From IMG/VR virus record IMGVR_UViG_2541047840_000001: DNA of 46,824 nt; one strand, written 5' to 3'. Under the pieces are notes generated by a model. It had not been told where the DNA came from. It ran no database searches and saw only the letters and a list, made by a program, of their open reading frames with translations. Of the stretch, positions 1-20,257 are shown one piece after another (position 1 is the stretch's first letter; every line of letters starts with the position of its first letter). The translations under genes and the position numbers were made by a program. The DNA comes from a virus (lineage: Duplodnaviria; Heunggongvirae; Uroviricota; Caudoviricetes).

Positions 1-2037
1 GCATTTGCTGCTGCTAACAATGCAGCAAATTTCAATCGTGAAAACAAAATGATTGGTCTTACGGCAGATATGAAGCCGGAAGAAGTTCAGGCGATGGGGC
101 AGGCGATGCTTGTTACCGGAACGGCCACCAACCAGTTTGCATCTGATATTCAGGCCGCTCAGGGTTTTCTCGTCGCTGCTGGGCAGGATTATAAAGAGGC
201 TCAGGCGAATCTACTAACTATTGGGCGAACAGCTACAGCTACTGGCTCTGATATCCTCGATGTCTCGAAAGCATCATTTACATTAAGTGACTCATTGAAG
301 ATTGATCCATCTCAAATGAAGTCTGCAATGGGGATTCTGGTTCAGGCAGGGAAAGAGGGAAACTTTGAATTTAAAGATATGGCCAAAAATCTTCCTGTGC
401 TTGGTGCTCAGTTCCAGGCATTAAAAATGGGAGGTAAAGAAGCCGCCGCGACGATGGGGGCAGCTTTGCAGATAGCTCGCAAAGGTGCTGCAACTTCGGA
501 TGAGGCTGCTAATAATATGAACAACTTTTTGGCAAAAATACTTTCCCCTGAAACACTAAAAAAAGCAAAGAAAAATTTCGGTGTAGATTTATATAAAATT
601 GTCACAACAGCGCAGAAAAAAGGGAAGAATCCATTCGAAGCTGCAATGCATTCTGTCATGAAAATGACTAAGAACGGAGATCAGAAGTTACTTGGTGAAC
701 TATTTGGCGATATGCAGGTTCAGAACTTTGTTCGTCCGATGATTCAAAACTGGAAGGAATACCAGAGAATCAAAGCAACATCTCTTGGAGCTGGAAGTGC
801 TGTTATTGACCGCGATTTTGCCAACATAACGAAAGATAATGCGGAGCGATTGAAACAATTACGTATTCAGGCTAGCAATGCATCATTAAGTTTTGGTCAG
901 GCCTTGCAACCTGCTTTGAATGCCGCGCTTAGTGTTTTGGTTCCGCTGATTACAAAAATTAGTGAATTTGTAGCTAACAACCCCAATTTTGTGTCTCAGA
1001 TAGTGATGGCGGCAGGTGCGTTTCTAACCATGAAAAGTGTGGTTATAGCGTGTAGGGTAGCTATGCTGGCTTTATCTGTAGCGACAAAGCTAACACCCTT
1101 CGGGTGGATTCAGATGGCTATATCTGCGCTGGTTGCCGCAGGAATATTGCTCTATCAGAACTGGGATAAGATCAGAGATTATGCTGTCAGAGTTTGGCCT
1201 TCTGTTAAGGAATATACAGTTAAATCGTTTGAGACTATAAAAAACTTTATCTTAAACTTTGATCTCAATGGATGGATTATATCTATATTTGGTAAAGCAT
1301 GGGATTATCTTTCCAACATAAACTGGAGTTCGGCAGGAGTAAGAATTTACAGTACATTAATTAGTGCTTTTAAATGGATGTCTCCGCTTCCGTTCTTAAT
1401 TAAAGCATTTAAACTTACAACAAATTACCTTTCTGGCATTAACTGGAGCGAAACAGGAAAGAAAATCATAGATACACTGGTATCTGTTTTTATGCGTTTT
1501 TCGCCAGTTGGACTCTTTATAAGAGCATTCCAATCTGTAACGTCTTATTTATCTGGAATAAACTGGAGTGAGTCAGGTGCAAAAATAATTGAGACGTTAA
1601 TCATTGGGATAAAATCAAAAGCAAATGCTTTAATTAATGAAGTGAAAGGCGTTTTTTCTTCTGTACGTGAGTATTTACCGTTCTCTGACGCGAAAAAAGG
1701 TCCATTCTCACAGCTAACAAAGTCAGGTGGTGCAATAATGACTACTCTGGCATCAGGTGTTAGCAGGAATAACAGCTTACAGAATGCAATAGCAACCAAG
1801 TTCGGGCAATCAAATTTATCACCTCACGGGATATCTGCCGCCGGGACTTCTGGACCTCGCCAGAACGTTAACGCTGTGACTGGTGGAATAACCTATTCAC
1901 CTGTAATCAATCTTCCGGCTGGTTCACCAAAGGAAACTGAGGCGGCAGCTAAAAGAGCATTAGATGCGGGATATTCTGATTTTGAGAAGAAATTGAGTGC
2001 TCATATGTTCCAACAACGGAGATTAAGTTTTGGATGA
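1..2037 (+). CDS. Tail tape measure protein, C-terminal portion (ORF open from window nt 1; track ORF 49..2037)
   Basis: 662-aa ORF with no in-frame stop upstream to nt 1; sits immediately upstream of X/D/V baseplate genes; hydrophobic central segment typical of tape measure proteins. Confidence 0.8.
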   Translation, partial: AFAAANNAANFNRENKMIGLTADMKPEEVQAMGQAMLVTGTATNQFASDIQAAQGFLVAAGQDYKEAQANLLTIGRTATATGSDILDVSKASFTLSDSLKIDPSQMKSAMGILVQAGKEGNFEFKDMAKNLPVLGAQFQALKMGGKEAAATMGAALQIARKGAATSDEAANNMNNFLAKILSPETLKKAKKNFGVDLYKIVTTAQKKGKNPFEAAMHSVMKMTKNGDQKLLGELFGDMQVQNFVRPMIQNWKEYQRIKATSLGAGSAVIDRDFANITKDNAERLKQLRIQASNASLSFGQALQPALNAALSVLVPLITKISEFVANNPNFVSQIVMAAGAFLTMKSVVIACRVAMLALSVATKLTPFGWIQMAISALVAAGILLYQNWDKIRDYAVRVWPSVKEYTVKSFETIKNFILNFDLNGWIISIFGKAWDYLSNINWSSAGVRIYSTLISAFKWMSPLPFLIKAFKLTTNYLSGINWSETGKKIIDTLVSVFMRFSPVGLFIRAFQSVTSYLSGINWSESGAKIIETLIIGIKSKANALINEVKGVFSSVREYLPFSDAKKGPFSQLTKSGGAIMTTLASGVSRNNSLQNAIATKFGQSNLSPHGISAAGTSGPRQNVNAVTGGITYSPVINLPAGSPKETEAAAKRALDAGYSDFEKKLSAHMFQQRRLSFG

Positions 2038-14024: not shown

Positions 14025-14033
14025 GGATTGAGC

Positions 14034-14381
14034 ATGTGGACGGTACTTTTTAGCCAGCGATTTGACGACTGGCTAAATGAGCAAGAAGACGCTCTTCAGG
14101 AAAAGGTTTTGGCTGATTTGAAAAAGCTACAGGTTTACGGACCTGAGTTACCCAGGCCATATGCCGATACCGTAAAAGGTTCTCGGTACAAAAATATGAA
14201 AGAGCTTCGCGTTCAGTTTTCTGGCCGTCCGATAAGAGCCTTTTATGCGTTCGATCCGATTCGCCGGGCCATCGTTCTTTGTGCAGGAGACAAAAGTAAC
14301 GATAAACGGTTTTATGAAAAACTGGTGCGTATAGCTGAGGATGAGTTTGCAGCACATCTGAACACACTGGAGAGCAAGTAA
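14034..14381 (+). CDS. Type II toxin, HigB/RelE-family-like (toxin-first arrangement)
   Basis: About 115 aa, small basic protein; stop overlaps start of a downstream HTH antitoxin-like gene (TAATG). Confidence 0.7.
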   Translation: MWTVLFSQRFDDWLNEQEDALQEKVLADLKKLQVYGPELPRPYADTVKGSRYKNMKELRVQFSGRPIRAFYAFDPIRRAIVLCAGDKSNDKRFYEKLVRIAEDEFAAHLNTLESK

Positions 14382-14680
14382 TGAGAACATTAGATGAGGT
14401 GATTGCCAGCCGTTCACCTGAAAGCCAGGCGCGAATTAAAGAAATGGCAGATGAGATGATTCTTGAGGTCGGCTTGCAGATGATGCGTGAAGAACTCCAG
14501 TTATCACAAAAACAGGTTGCTGAGGCGATGGGTATAAGCCAGCCAGCAGTAACAAAGCTGGAGCAGCGCGGAAATGATTTAAAGCTGGCGACATTAAAGC
14601 GTTACGTTGAAGCTATGGGAGGCAAATTAAGCCTGGATGTTGAGCTTCCTACAGGAAAGCGAGTAGCGTTCCATGTCTAA
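14381..14680 (+). CDS. HTH (XRE-family) antitoxin, HigA-like
   Basis: 99 aa, HTH segment LSQKQVAEAMGISQPAVTKLE; downstream position typical of HigA. Confidence 0.7.
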   Translation: MRTLDEVIASRSPESQARIKEMADEMILEVGLQMMREELQLSQKQVAEAMGISQPAVTKLEQRGNDLKLATLKRYVEAMGGKLSLDVELPTGKRVAFHV

Positions 14681-16791: not shown

Positions 16792-17973
16792 TTATGGTCT
16801 GCTTTTCTGTGCCAGCTTATCAGCACATGTTTTTATCAGATCCTGTAGTGTCTTGGCTGGCAGGTTTGCATCCAGTACGCTGAGTATGCTGTTGTGATCA
16901 GCTTGGTCGACTACTTTGCCTGTCGGTGGTAGTAGCTTGAGCTGAGGATTCAGGTTTTCGTCAAAGCTGATAAGTGCTCTGGCGTTTCTGAGCAGATCAA
17001 GAAGTAAGGCTGATATCACATTTTCCTGAGTCATTGCTGGCAGATTTAGCGCCGCTTTGGTTTTCCCTGTTGCCTTGTCAAACTCCTTGATTAGTTCCTT
17101 CCTGTAGTTCGGTTCCGTTAATAGCCGATTATGCTCTGTTGCCGCGCGGATAATCGTTTTTTCTTGGTACAGTCGTTTAGCCAGATCACGCTCGTACTGT
17201 GTTTTTAACACGCTGCTGATAGCGTTAAAGGCTTCAATGTAGGCCAGCTTGATATCTTTCACGCTTGGACCGTCGATGCTCTCCATGAGCAAGGTAAATC
17301 CGTCTTTTGTCATGCGATAGATTGTTATTTCGCGGTCGCTTCCTTCCAACGGTCGTTGCTCTTTAAAAAAATGACGCGCCGCAGCTGTGCGAGGAATGCG
17401 TAACGCATCGATGGCCATAACGATGGAATTGTTTGTGGTGCTGAATGCCTGGGCAACATCGGCTGAGGTTGTGAGTGGCTCGTTATTGCACACCTTAATG
17501 TAAAACATCGGTTTGGCGTTGAGCGTATCGACAACCTCACGAGCATTGCTTGGCGAGACGGTAACGGTCGCGGCCGTTTGTGCGTTCTGGTTGAAATAGC
17601 AGTCTTCCAGCCGTTCGAACACATCCCACGCTTGGTTAGTTTCAAGCATTTTAGCGTGACGTGCAGCCCCGCGTTCTGTCCAGAGGATGAGGGAGCGAAC
17701 TTTCGGGGGAATTTGTAACCCTCTTAAAGATGGTTCGTTAACTACTCTCACAGGAACTCTTAAAGAGTTTTTGTTCTTCAACTCTCGTAACTCTTTACCT
17801 TCTATCCTAAAAAAGTGTTTACCTTCTATAAAACGTTCCTTGTTTCTATTGAAATTGTTTGTCAGACGTTGGCGCTCGGTTCCATACAATTGCGCCAGTA
17901 GTTCAGTAGTGATAACGGGGAGCTGGTTATGCAGGATAGGCTGTAGGGTGTTAACGGTCGGAAGCGTTTTCAT
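16792..17973 (-). CDS. Phage antirepressor-like regulatory protein (ORF6N / Rha-like domains)
   Basis: 393 aa; N-terminal segment ending FIEGKHFF and a central Rha-like segment; calls are from recalled domain patterns. Confidence 0.65.
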   Translation of the reverse strand: MKTLPTVNTLQPILHNQLPVITTELLAQLYGTERQRLTNNFNRNKERFIEGKHFFRIEGKELRELKNKNSLRVPVRVVNEPSLRGLQIPPKVRSLILWTERGAARHAKMLETNQAWDVFERLEDCYFNQNAQTAATVTVSPSNAREVVDTLNAKPMFYIKVCNNEPLTTSADVAQAFSTTNNSIVMAIDALRIPRTAAARHFFKEQRPLEGSDREITIYRMTKDGFTLLMESIDGPSVKDIKLAYIEAFNAISSVLKTQYERDLAKRLYQEKTIIRAATEHNRLLTEPNYRKELIKEFDKATGKTKAALNLPAMTQENVISALLLDLLRNARALISFDENLNPQLKLLPPTGKVVDQADHNSILSVLDANLPAKTLQDLIKTCADKLAQKSRP

Positions 17974-18161
17974 TTTGCACCTCCCATAACTACTTTGGTT
18001 ACGAGGGAGATTTTTGCGTCAGAAACAGCGTTATCGTTGCTGGCGATGCGCATAGCTTCGCGCTCGATGATTTCAGCCAGGCGGAGTTTATCGGCGTATG
18101 AGGCTTTCTTGAGAAGGATCTTTACGAGGTTGACGTAATAGTCATGGGGTAAGTTTGTCAT
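17970..18161 (-). CDS. Small protein overlapping antirepressor start (icd-like position)
   Basis: 63 aa ORF whose stop overlaps the antirepressor start codon. Confidence 0.4.
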   Translation of the reverse strand: MTNLPHDYYVNLVKILLKKASYADKLRLAEIIEREAMRIASNDNAVSDAKISLVTKVVMGGAK

Positions 18162-18917
18162 GGTGATAGTTCCCTTAAAGGTTAAGGATACTCACCACCG
18201 TCTGGTTCCAATCATTGGGTGGTGAGACGTACAGGGTTGGAACTACCGGTCACCATGGAATCCGGCGAGTCTTACGACTCCCCCGCACGCCCCACCATAA
18301 TTTGGGTGTAGCAGTGCTTTACGCATAAAAAAACCGCTAACGCGGTATGCGCCATGATGATTATCGGGGTTCCAATCCCGGTCGTAGATTTTGCTACGGC
18401 TCGGAAAGTGTCCACCAATGGCGCATTCATGTCAATACGGCGGGATTTTAACAGAGACAACCACATAGCGTGGGTTTATTGGTAGGCAGAAACAAAAAAA
18501 CCGCCCTATTGAGGACGGTTCTTTCGTGCTGATCGGATTCGCGGTCCTTTCAGCATTACGTTGTTGTATAAACAACCACGCAAGCACAAGCAGCAAGTTA
18601 ATTTTACCCAAAAGGTAATAATAGTCCACTATTATGCTTCATAAAATTGTGGTTCTTGTTGTGCCTGCAAACTCACAGATTGTGGGTAGGTTACTGATTT
18701 TGTGAAAATAAACTGGTTTTTTCGTTTAATTTATTTCCTATTACTAATCTTAAAATAATCGTAAAATACCTGTGGACCTTCCCGCCGATTCGCACCCGGG
18801 CACCGACTTTAGGGGAGGATTTCCTGTTGCCGTACATGCAAGCACAAGCAGCCGTGCTTGCTCTCGCGTTGTTTTCGTCGGTGGGGATGCCGTGAAACGG
18901 CCTGTAAGGGCCATACA

Positions 18918-19040
18918 ATGAAAAAATACTGTATGTGTATTTTTATCGTTGTTACTGGGGCTTTGTTTACGCCACATGGGGAGGGTTGGAAGATTACTGA
19001 TAACGCTCTGAATGTGACGATAAACATTAGCAGCAAGTAG
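18918..19040 (+). CDS. Candidate small hydrophobic peptide (40 aa)
   Basis: ATG 18918 with AAGG RBS inside a short hairpin; translation MKKYCMCIFIVVTGALFTPHGEGWKITDNALNVTINISSK; strong terminator immediately downstream. Confidence 0.3.
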   Translation: MKKYCMCIFIVVTGALFTPHGEGWKITDNALNVTINISSK

Positions 19041-19045
19041 CGATT

Positions 19046-19068
19046 AGGCCCCTTCGGGGGCCTTTTTT
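19046..19068 (+). terminator. Rho-independent terminator
   Basis: AGGCCCC-TTCG-GGGGCCT followed by TTTTTT. Confidence 0.65.
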
Positions 19069-19290
19069 ATGGTTGAATTTAAACGCTGGAGCGCATTAAA
19101 CCTTTCAGAACTGCTTCACGTACCCATTCTGGCCTGGTAGATAGCAGGGCAAATAAGCAACCAGCTTGCAGCCGTTTGAGGTCGGTTAGACGAGTTTTCA
19201 GTAACCGTGTATATTGTTGCTCGGACATAACAAATTCCCCTTGTTGTGTCGCGACGGCCAACAGTTGGCGCTGGAGGCCGTCACCTTCTC

Positions 19291-19549: not shown

Positions 19550-19584
19550 TTTTATATAAATCTATAAAACTATAATTATATATT
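19550..19584. repeat. AT-rich dispersed motif copy (TTTTATATAAATCTATAA...TATAATTATATA)
   Basis: Shares TATAAATCTATA and TATAATTATATA cores with other copies; lies between parA stop and parG start. Confidence 0.6.
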
Positions 19585-20236
19585 ACGCGGCAGTAGTCAG
19601 AGCCTCAAGCTGATTGATAATCCCCTGGATAACATCGTCTGCCTTTTTGCGTGGCGCAACGTATGAGCACTCAATGAGGCTTAAGCCCTTATCCTGAGCT
19701 TTGCTCAGAGCTGGCTTGTGGGGAATGTACTTATCGACAACAAAGTATGGCGTATTAGCCAGGTACTCTTGGGCTTCAATATAGTCAGCTTCGTTTTCAG
19801 CCGCGCCGGAAAACACCATGCAAATTTTCTTGATTGGTACACCCTTTTTAACGATGCCGTGAGCTGTGTTAACGGTGGTTTCCAGGTCATCGGTAGAGAA
19901 TCTGGTTGGCAAAATAACCATATCCAGAAATTCAGAGAGCTTCGGTACTGATTCAGATGCGTAGGCACCGCCATCGACGATAACCAAGTCGTATACTTCT
20001 GATTCGATGATTTTCTGGACTTGTGATGGTGTGCCGCACGGCTGCGCCGCGATTGCTGGTTCGATATTGTTGGCCATTCTGCGTTGTACCCAACGCGTTA
20101 CCGTTCCGTTAAGCACATCCATATCGATCAGGCATACATTCCAGCCAGCCTTTGCATAAGCAACTGCTAAAGCACGGGCAATTGTTGATTTGGTTACGCC
20201 GCCTTTTCCGTTGAAAATACCTACAGAGATAGTCAT
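19583..20236 (-). CDS. ParA/ParF-family partition ATPase
   Basis: Deviant Walker A GKGGVTKST near N-terminus; probable start at second ATG (20236) with GGAG RBS; track ORF extends to 20251. Confidence 0.85.
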   Translation of the reverse strand: MTISVGIFNGKGGVTKSTIARALAVAYAKAGWNVCLIDMDVLNGTVTRWVQRRMANNIEPAIAAQPCGTPSQVQKIIESEVYDLVIVDGGAYASESVPKLSEFLDMVILPTRFSTDDLETTVNTAHGIVKKGVPIKKICMVFSGAAENEADYIEAQEYLANTPYFVVDKYIPHKPALSKAQDKGLSLIECSYVAPRKKADDVIQGIINQLEALTTAA

Positions 20237-20257
20237 TTGTCGAGACTCCATGTGTTT

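Follow-up and report, generated by a model that had tools for sequence, protein, structure and literature searches.

The timPR locus of Salmonella is a type I toxin-antitoxin system whose toxin, TimP, is a 38-amino-acid inner-membrane protein; its toxicity depends on the start codon and the small RNA (sRNA) TimR represses it (PMC7667032). In timPR systems the sRNA is encoded divergently upstream of the toxin gene and uses its 5' end to base-pair with some 18 nt in the 5' untranslated region (5'UTR) of timP, and in Salmonella the timP open reading frame (ORF) spans +145 to +261 of the mRNA (PMC7667032). What timPR does biologically is acknowledged to be unsettled, and at native expression the chromosomal locus has no clear phenotype (PMC7667032). 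Here we describe a locus of about 580 bp (~18490-19069) in a 46,824-nucleotide stretch of Caudoviricetes DNA (IMG/VR record IMGVR_UViG_2541047840_000001), the whole of which is referred to as the window. The locus is very probably a complete timPR type I toxin-antitoxin cassette on a ~48-kb myovirus-type phage-plasmid. It belongs to the known timPR family as a divergent copy that has gone unannotated, and is not new in kind. An earlier note, made from the letters alone, had suggested a type I toxin-like gene for a small hydrophobic peptide at this position, a suggestion borne out by the homology to the timP/TimR family.

The predicted toxin mRNA and its peptide

The plus strand from 18772 to 19068 matches the Rfam family ryfA (RF00126) over its full length (model positions 1-296 of 296), with 143 bits against a gathering score of 80 and an E value of 1.3e-37, so the features of the locus are not a product of chance. 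As ryfA is the earlier name of the timP mRNA, the stretch is read here as a timP (ryfA) toxin mRNA of about 298 nt (18772..19069, plus strand). Nine related loci match RF00126 at 134-166 bits. Full-length matches of 134-142 bits were found in all eight of the close relatives that were fetched, which are plasmids of E. coli and Klebsiella aerogenes and the Yersinia phages vB_YpM_39 and vB_YpM_41; a distant relative (locus L009), with a peptide 68% identical to that of the window, scores 166 bits. When blastn was run with the region in 'distant' mode, timP of the E. coli chromosome was not found, so the link to that gene rests on the covariance model and the profiles. A ryfA consensus match is present in 5426 of 5426 complete E. 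coli genomes.

The mRNA is predicted to be highly structured (z of -3.4). A putative promoter, ATTACT-16-TAAAAT (18740..18767, plus strand; 8/12 in a consensus scan), predicts a start near 18772-18775, in agreement with Rfam model position 1 at 18772. The strong terminator placed after the ORF by the earlier note is there: AGGCCCC-TTCG-GGGGCCT at 19046-19063 is followed by six T residues, and this intrinsic terminator (19046..19069, plus strand) forms the right edge of the cassette. Weak Rfam matches to Atu_C8, PhrS and RNAI fell below threshold and were rejected.

The 40-codon ORF of the earlier note (18918..19040, plus strand) is present as described, with an ATG start and a TAG stop, and occupies +147 to +269 of the mRNA. 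Its product, MKKYCMCIFIVVTGALFTPHGEGWKITDNALNVTINISSK, has a basic KK N-terminus, a hydrophobic stretch and a polar C-terminus. A profile built from seven TimP peptides (E. coli, Yersinia, Erwinia and Pantoea) detects it with an E value of 1.6e-13; it is the sole significant frame among the 1046 stop-to-stop frames of the window, the next-best, unrelated frame reaching 0.036. The NCBIfam model NF040796 (toxic_TimP) aligns over residues 1-40 of 40 (E value of 7e-5). The peptide is 43-51% identical to TimP of the Yersinia, Erwinia and Pantoea type, and shares with E. coli TimP the residues M-K, an I..V.GAL core (in which GAL is invariant) and L.V..N. The mean Kyte-Doolittle hydropathy is 2.36 over residues 4-17 and -0.53 over the rest, compared with 2.34 and -0.68 for E. 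coli TimP. Homologues with peptide identities of 35-68% differ by in-frame indels (39, 40 or 41 codons), and the differences between the window and L009 ORFs, at 10, 2 and 10 for the three codon positions, are compatible with coding although the numbers are too small to decide. By analogy with its family, the ORF would be expressed as a small, toxic inner-membrane peptide of the TimP type.

The peptide had no match in Pfam, PHROGs or PADLOC, and a search of a large protein database returned two relatives only (a C5Y variant and the 68% identical peptide), so homologues were sought at the DNA and RNA level. The earlier note had recognized no similarity to Hok or another known toxin family; there is indeed no Hok or Pfam match, but the TimP family does match. 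Its description of an otherwise ORF-free stretch likewise stands in part: within 18162-19290 this ORF is the only credible protein gene, but the rest is packed with RNA genes (C4, isrK-like, TimR and the timP mRNA). Three overlapping 75-amino-acid ORFs on the minus strand (18691-19036) and a TTG-extended 60-amino-acid frame (18858-19040) were rejected as mechanical ORFs, homology setting the ATG at 18918.

A tblastn search found the ORF in 58 phage-plasmid records of PLSDB, the same number as carry the parA of the family; 57 copies are full length with at least 90% identity and one is cut by the end of its record. The ORF is also intact in three Yersinia phages and seven IMG/VR contigs. Among the plasmid and phage records whose feature tables were displayed, none has an annotation at the cassette, whereas RefSeq annotates timP in the chromosomal records displayed.

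The predicted antitoxin RNA and the timP leader

A TimR-like antitoxin sRNA gene of about 102 nt lies upstream on the minus strand (18493..18594) and comprises a 5' seed, two hairpins and an intrinsic terminator (18493-18526). An nhmmer profile of five TimR sequences from E. coli, Erwinia and Pantoea matches 18588..18489 (minus strand) over profile positions 10-104 with an E value of 9.6e-14. The predicted fold has an energy of -42.4 kcal/mol (z of -6.1 against shuffled controls); in a consensus fold with relatives eight pairs carry compensatory changes, and the terminator is common across clades, as is the central hairpin, in which clades differ by compensatory changes. A match to ColE1 RNAI (RF00106) at 18493-18588 (minus strand; 26.7 bits against a gathering score of 47, E value of 0.1) was rejected, the stretch being TimR. 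The putative timR promoter, TGGACT-16-TAAAAT (18601..18628, minus strand; 9/12 in the consensus scan), predicts a start near 18594, the first base of the seed; in the 82% variants the -35 box is conserved and the -10 box is TAGAAT.

The earlier note had listed a repeated element. The 15-mer GCAAGCACAAGCAGC occurs exactly at 18580-18594 and 18838-18852, its sole exact copies in the window; the second copy is where the note had put it, whereas the first begins at 18580 and not at 18584. The repeat extends to 18 nt (18577-18594 and 18835-18852) with 17 of 18 positions identical. The upstream copy is the TimR seed (18577..18594; 5'-GCUGCUUGUGCUUGCGUG on the minus strand), which is complementary to the SL2 region of the timP leader: read from 18594 to 18577 it pairs with 18835-18852 (+64 to +81 of the mRNA) in an unbroken run of 18 that includes one G.U pair. 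This complementarity and the TimR homology identify the repeated element as the TimR seed together with its target. The target is more than 60 nt upstream of the ribosome-binding site (RBS), and the timR gene is divergent and does not overlap the timP mRNA; in place of the overlapping antisense RNA that the earlier note proposed to look for, the antitoxin would be a divergent, non-overlapping sRNA starting at the upstream repeat copy. Complementarity and covariation suggest that TimR represses timP by direct pairing, as has been proven in Salmonella.

The seed and its target change together. In six loci G18590A in the seed is paired with G18848A in the target, and in locus L004 A18592G is paired with A18850G; the remaining differences are compatible with G.U pairs. 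The 5' half of the seed is rewritten in L009, yet the seed has perfect 17-nt complementarity at the same position of the mRNA. In the E. coli chromosomal, Erwinia, Pantoea, Yersinia and Serratia copies the seeds differ and yet complement their own targets, which are always at +63 to +90. Predicted cognate duplexes have energies of -35 to -46 kcal/mol compared with -19 to -36 kcal/mol for non-cognate ones, the cognate duplex being the strongest in every row and column of the matrix. For TimR of the window, the predicted duplex with its own timP has -37.6 kcal/mol and those with the E. coli chromosomal timP have -21 to -24.5 kcal/mol. Loci L013-L017 are termed genome-assembly copies here rather than chromosomal copies, and L013 (Yersinia similis), whose timP shows poor alignment in its 5' part and is overlapped there by a TimR-like match, was used for the peptide only.

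Several side observations concern the sRNA and its surroundings. CAACA in TimR (18561-18565, minus-strand RNA) can pair with UGUUG at 18824-18828 as a second short contact in the predicted cognate duplex, joining the 3' side of the first TimR hairpin to sequence just 5' of site 2 of the leader; predictions for E. coli cognate duplexes show similar additional contacts. At 18642-18668 (plus strand; TAAAATTGTGGTTCTTGTTGTGCCTGC) the seed region recurs a third time, inverted and degenerate, together with a TAAAAT box. This copy has 70% complementarity to 18580-18606 and lacks conservation in the 82% variants; it may stem from an inverted duplication of the timR 5' end that has since decayed, or be a chance likeness. 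The spacer between timR and timP is about 177 bp in the window (18595-18771) and about 190 bp in L009, compared with about 70-80 bp in E. coli chromosomal, Erwinia and IncFII loci (L012 621-699, L015 1273-1353 and L026 3788-3854), and no other part varies as much among relatives that are nearly identical elsewhere; regulatory sites might be present in the additional ~100 bp. Locus L011, of the E. coli K-12 type, has two TimR-like copies (198-299 and 519-620) upstream of a single timP, one of them overlapped by an Rfam IS128 match. In strain L26 (L012 700-1004 and 1382-1686) the whole timPR unit is tandemly duplicated with different seeds. In L013 the TimR-like match (1342-1436, minus strand) overlaps the 5' end of the ryfA match (1370-1653), which suggests a rearranged locus, and an unrelated Rfam Ysr224 match lies just upstream.

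The published model of the timP leader, with stem-loops SL1-SL4, a pseudoknot between sites 1 and 3 and an opening interaction of site 2 with site 4, was mapped onto an 11-sequence alignment (PMC11228461; PMC13000454). Under this model 92% of the alignment cells are paired in silico, compared with 38-43% when the partners are slid. Double changes occur in ten pairs of the model, and three pseudoknot pairs carry compensatory changes. SL1 (18778-18817, plus strand, as are all leader elements) holds site 1, CACCGAC (18801..18807), the 5' partner of the pseudoknot, which pairs with 18877-18883; in the window all seven pairs of CACCGAC with GUCGGUG are Watson-Crick pairs, and relative to the E. coli chromosomal copies G35A is offset by C107U, so that a G-C pair there is an A-U pair here. 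Site 2, GCCGU (18829..18833), forms five Watson-Crick pairs with ACGGC (18897-18901) in the 5' flank of SL4, a pairing that can free the Shine-Dalgarno (SD) sequence (PMC13000454). SL2 (18835..18860) has all seven pairs of its stem (18839-18845 and 18854-18860). The upstream hairpin of the earlier note is this element: its arms, GCAAGCAC at 18838-18845 and GTGCTTGC at 18854-18861, correspond to SL2, the TimR-binding stem-loop of the Salmonella model, and it is present as proposed, except that it spans 18838-18861 and not 18839-18862. SL3 (18863..18896 in the mapped model) has site 3, GUCGGUG (18877-18883), in its loop region.

SL4 (18897..18914; Rfam positions 124-143) is the hairpin that sequesters the SD sequence AAGGG (18906-18910). 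The earlier note had put an AAGG RBS inside a GGCC/GGCC hairpin, and this was correct: AAGG at 18906-18909 sits within and between GGCC at 18899-18902 and GGCC at 18909-18912, and the GGCC hairpin is SL4. In the window SL4 has five Watson-Crick pairs, one G.U pair and one C.A mismatch, and shows two compensatory double changes relative to other homologues. In Salmonella a pairing between sites 1 and 2 locks a translationally inactive conformation; in the window the central pairs left for this interaction number three, compared with five in E. coli K-12, with an alternative register judged only loosely. The weakened lock may shift the phage-plasmid timP towards the translatable fold. Natural variants with compensatory changes are found in the plasmid clade as well and lend support to the published model of pseudoknot and switch.

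Carrier, function and alternative explanations

The carrier belongs to a family of ~48-kb non-mobilizable plasmids with genes for terminase, portal, capsid, contractile tail, holins, a cI-like repressor and ParA, and three sequenced, infective Yersinia phages are close relatives. The virion, repressor and ParA genes together with these phages identify it as a phage-plasmid, and it is a temperate one of myovirus type. On one side of the cassette is a P1-type immI region and on the other are the partition genes, the latter already noticed earlier and now confirmed by Pfam for parA (19583-20251, minus strand). The immI region (16792-18413), all on the minus strand, comprises an ORF6N+Rha antirepressor gene (16792-17973), a 63-amino-acid ORF at the icd position (17970-18161), a C4 antisense RNA (18215-18302; 84 bits), an isrK-like RNA (18327-18400; 65 bits) and an a1b1 C4-target element (18361-18413; below the gathering score). 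Indels in relatives set the edges of the cassette at 18477-18488 and after 19069, and homology with L009, where the cassette is on the opposite side of immI, ends at 18492 and 19066.

In several relatives, including the plasmid of ATCC 25922 and the Yersinia phages, a helix-turn-helix (HTH) gene of about 0.5 kb stands between the immI leader and the TimR terminator (L001 1998-2525, L002 2913-3452, L005 454-993 and L007 1405-1977); the corresponding place in the window (18477-18488) has none. A Klebsiella aerogenes plasmid has a ~165-bp insertion directly after the timP terminator (L008 1863-2029). Between that terminator and an 82-amino-acid gene downstream of parA, the stretch 19079-19261 (minus strand) is 76% conserved in L009 (4123-4291), again beside the 82-amino-acid and ParA genes; it holds a 60-amino-acid ORF with no Pfam match and might represent either a centromere-like site or a small gene associated with par. 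Further away on the plus strand is a type II toxin-antitoxin pair (14028-14680): the toxin ORF (14028-14381) is Gp49/HigB-like, of the RelE/ParE superfamily, and the ORF after it (14381-14680) encodes an HTH antitoxin. In a close relative the pair is annotated as a RelE/ParE toxin and an HTH protein.

The reading as a timPR cassette draws on the homology of mRNA, peptide and sRNA, on conservation, on seed-target covariation and on the preservation of structure; from the family, the locus would be expected to be transcribed, toxic and repressed by its sRNA. The plus strand would give a timP mRNA of about 298 nt with its SD sequence buried in SL4, which the SL1-SL3 pseudoknot and the pairing of site 2 with the SL4 5' flank would expose, by analogy with Salmonella. 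The minus strand would give a TimR of about 102 nt whose 5' 18 nt would bind SL2, disturb the active fold and block translation. If the element were lost, TimR would decay, TimP would be made and the membrane would be damaged. Such plasmid addiction is what we infer, with lower confidence, to be the most likely role: the cassette sits in the maintenance region and is fixed in the family, and TimR has been reported to be less stable than the timP mRNA (PMC7667032).

A number of observations weigh against this interpretation, either as regards the identity of the locus or its role. Identity between the peptide and E. coli chromosomal TimP is no more than 35-38%, and the peptide scores 23 bits with NF040796, short of the curated cutoff of 45 bits; by this yardstick it is a divergent member of TimP. 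The ORF region is almost invariant among the close relatives, so that coding selection on it is poorly resolved, and the inferred timP promoter is a weak match (8/12). The C.A mismatch in SL4 and a central A35.C59 mismatch in the site 1-2 pairing, seen in the four phage-plasmid-type sequences examined, mean that regulation may differ in detail from Salmonella. Deletion of timR at native expression leaves growth unslowed in Salmonella (PMC7667032), which weakens the case for killing, and the element already has the Gp49/HigB-like type II pair.

The alternative that survives best accepts a functional timPR but has it serve phage biology, through abortive infection or superinfection exclusion directed at other phages, or through membrane damage in the phage's own lytic cycle; in the first two variants, shut-off of host transcription would release TimP, and a short-lived antitoxin RNA would respond to such shut-off. 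The carrier is a temperate myovirus-type phage-plasmid with infective relatives, the cassette abuts the C4, isrK-like RNA and antirepressor gene of immI, and type I systems such as hok/sok are reported to exclude phage T4 in work cited in PMC13000454. PADLOC and PHROGs contain no matching family, however, and deletion of the chromosomal timPR in Salmonella left P22 infection unaffected (PMC7667032). The HTH gene that separates the cassette from immI in several relatives shows that its coupling to immunity is not fixed. We consider a role in phage biology rather unlikely.

It is improbable that the transcript acts mainly as a regulatory RNA of the RyfA type, connected with stress resistance, biofilm formation and virulence in pathogenic E. 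coli and Shigella, with the ORF secondary or untranslated. The family was first described as the non-coding RyfA, the timP mRNA is highly structured, and ryfA mutants have stress and virulence phenotypes according to two reports (PMC8205139, PMC13188913). Against this, the ORF is kept intact, with indels in frame, across homologues of 35-68% peptide identity, Salmonella toxicity is start-codon dependent (PMC7667032), and the SD-sequestering hairpin and its opening elements, which are relevant only if the ORF is translated, are preserved. A regulatory RNA would in any case be compatible with the timPR explanation.

An inert timPR remnant, hitch-hiking from another enterobacterium with its function lost, would account for the weak promoter matches, the SL4 and site 1-2 mismatches and the peptide score below the curated cutoff. 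This is very improbable given that seed and target co-change in three variants of the element and in L009, that the pseudoknot and SL4 show compensatory changes, that both terminators are intact and that the ORF is full length in 57 of 58 plasmid records (the other being cut by the record end) and intact in the three phages and seven viral contigs. In a hok/sok-like locus, an antisense RNA encoded in cis would overlap the toxin mRNA. Such a locus would share the small hydrophobic toxin ORF, the structured RBS and the place on a plasmid beside par, but is scarcely credible: Pfam gives no match to Hok or to any other family, the gene for the complementary RNA does not overlap its target and lies 244 bp upstream, the sole promoter-like site opposite the timP mRNA (18776..18747, 8/12) lies over its first bases with none opposite the ORF or 3' end, and the locus is homologous to timPR instead.

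Returning to the timPR cassette itself, we put forward tentatively, and as doubtful rather than probable, that the phage-plasmid copy is a dedicated addiction or defence module insulated from the chromosomal timPR that every E. coli host has. The rewritten seed and SL2 loop would stop host TimR from neutralizing plasmid TimP, and the weakened site 1-2 lock would keep most of the mRNA in the translatable fold and so leave control almost wholly to the short-lived TimR. If true, this would be the first clear biological function for any timPR system. A divergent, complete copy that is fixed in a phage-plasmid family, adjoins immunity and partition genes and always coexists with a chromosomal paralogue offers a natural setting in which to study the role of timPR. 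Addiction and phage exclusion could be investigated in it, as could cross-talk among paralogous type I systems, and the element is present in the widely available E. coli ATCC 25922. The locus adds a mobile-element context and natural seed and structure variants to timPR, and its timP and timR genes are unannotated in about 60 public plasmid records and three phage genomes, as far as those records were displayed.

Comparison with known systems

The closest described system is the chromosomal timP/TimR of Salmonella, E. coli and Shigella (formerly ryfA/STnc2070, RyfA1/RyfB1), to which the mRNA is homologous over its full length. The ORF position, the hydropathy split of the peptide, the divergent homologous sRNA and the pairing of its 5' end with SL2 at the same position are common to both, and SL1-SL4, the pseudoknot and the site 2-4 pairing are all kept. 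The window copy is on a phage-plasmid, whereas the chromosomal timPR is between sseA and sseB. Its seed is unlike that of the E. coli chromosome, cross-duplexes being 8-17 kcal/mol weaker than cognate ones; its site 1-2 'inactive lock' is mismatched, unlike that of chromosomal timPR, and its divergent promoter region is about 100 bp longer.

Complete timPR cassettes are also found on IncFII conjugative plasmids, namely pGDT4 of Yersinia pseudotuberculosis (L026 3684-4120) and pJSRIV006_1 of Serratia (L027 3684-4117), of which only the pGDT4 copy is annotated as timP. These are likewise mobile and have a seed of 20-28 nt at +63 to +90. Their peptides are 47-50% identical to that of the window, closer than E. 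coli TimP. They differ in adjoining a phospholipase D family gene, in their short spacer and in their conjugative carrier, and their TimR matches the reference profile with E values of 1e-29 to 1e-31 compared with 1e-13 for the window TimR. Literature searches gave nothing relevant on the Yersinia phage names or on timP/ryfA with phage-plasmids, and we did not find mobile timPR discussed; the IncFII cassettes nonetheless make the mobility of timPR visible in databases.

Plasmid R1's hok/sok system is the classical case of plasmid post-segregational killing and serves as the model for the proposed addiction role. It is likewise a plasmid-borne small membrane toxin with translation blocked by mRNA structure and an unstable antisense RNA. 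There is no sequence homology between the two loci, and the Sok RNA overlaps in cis with the leader of mok/hok. For hok, 3' processing and coupling to mok are required; timP, by contrast, becomes active by refolding and needs no processing (PMC11228461, PMC13000454). The tisB/istR-1, shoB/ohsC, zorO/orzO and dinQ/agrB systems also have a divergent adjacent sRNA that pairs far upstream of a structured RBS (PMC7667032). They are unrelated in sequence and use standby sites and mRNA processing, with no pseudoknot switch.

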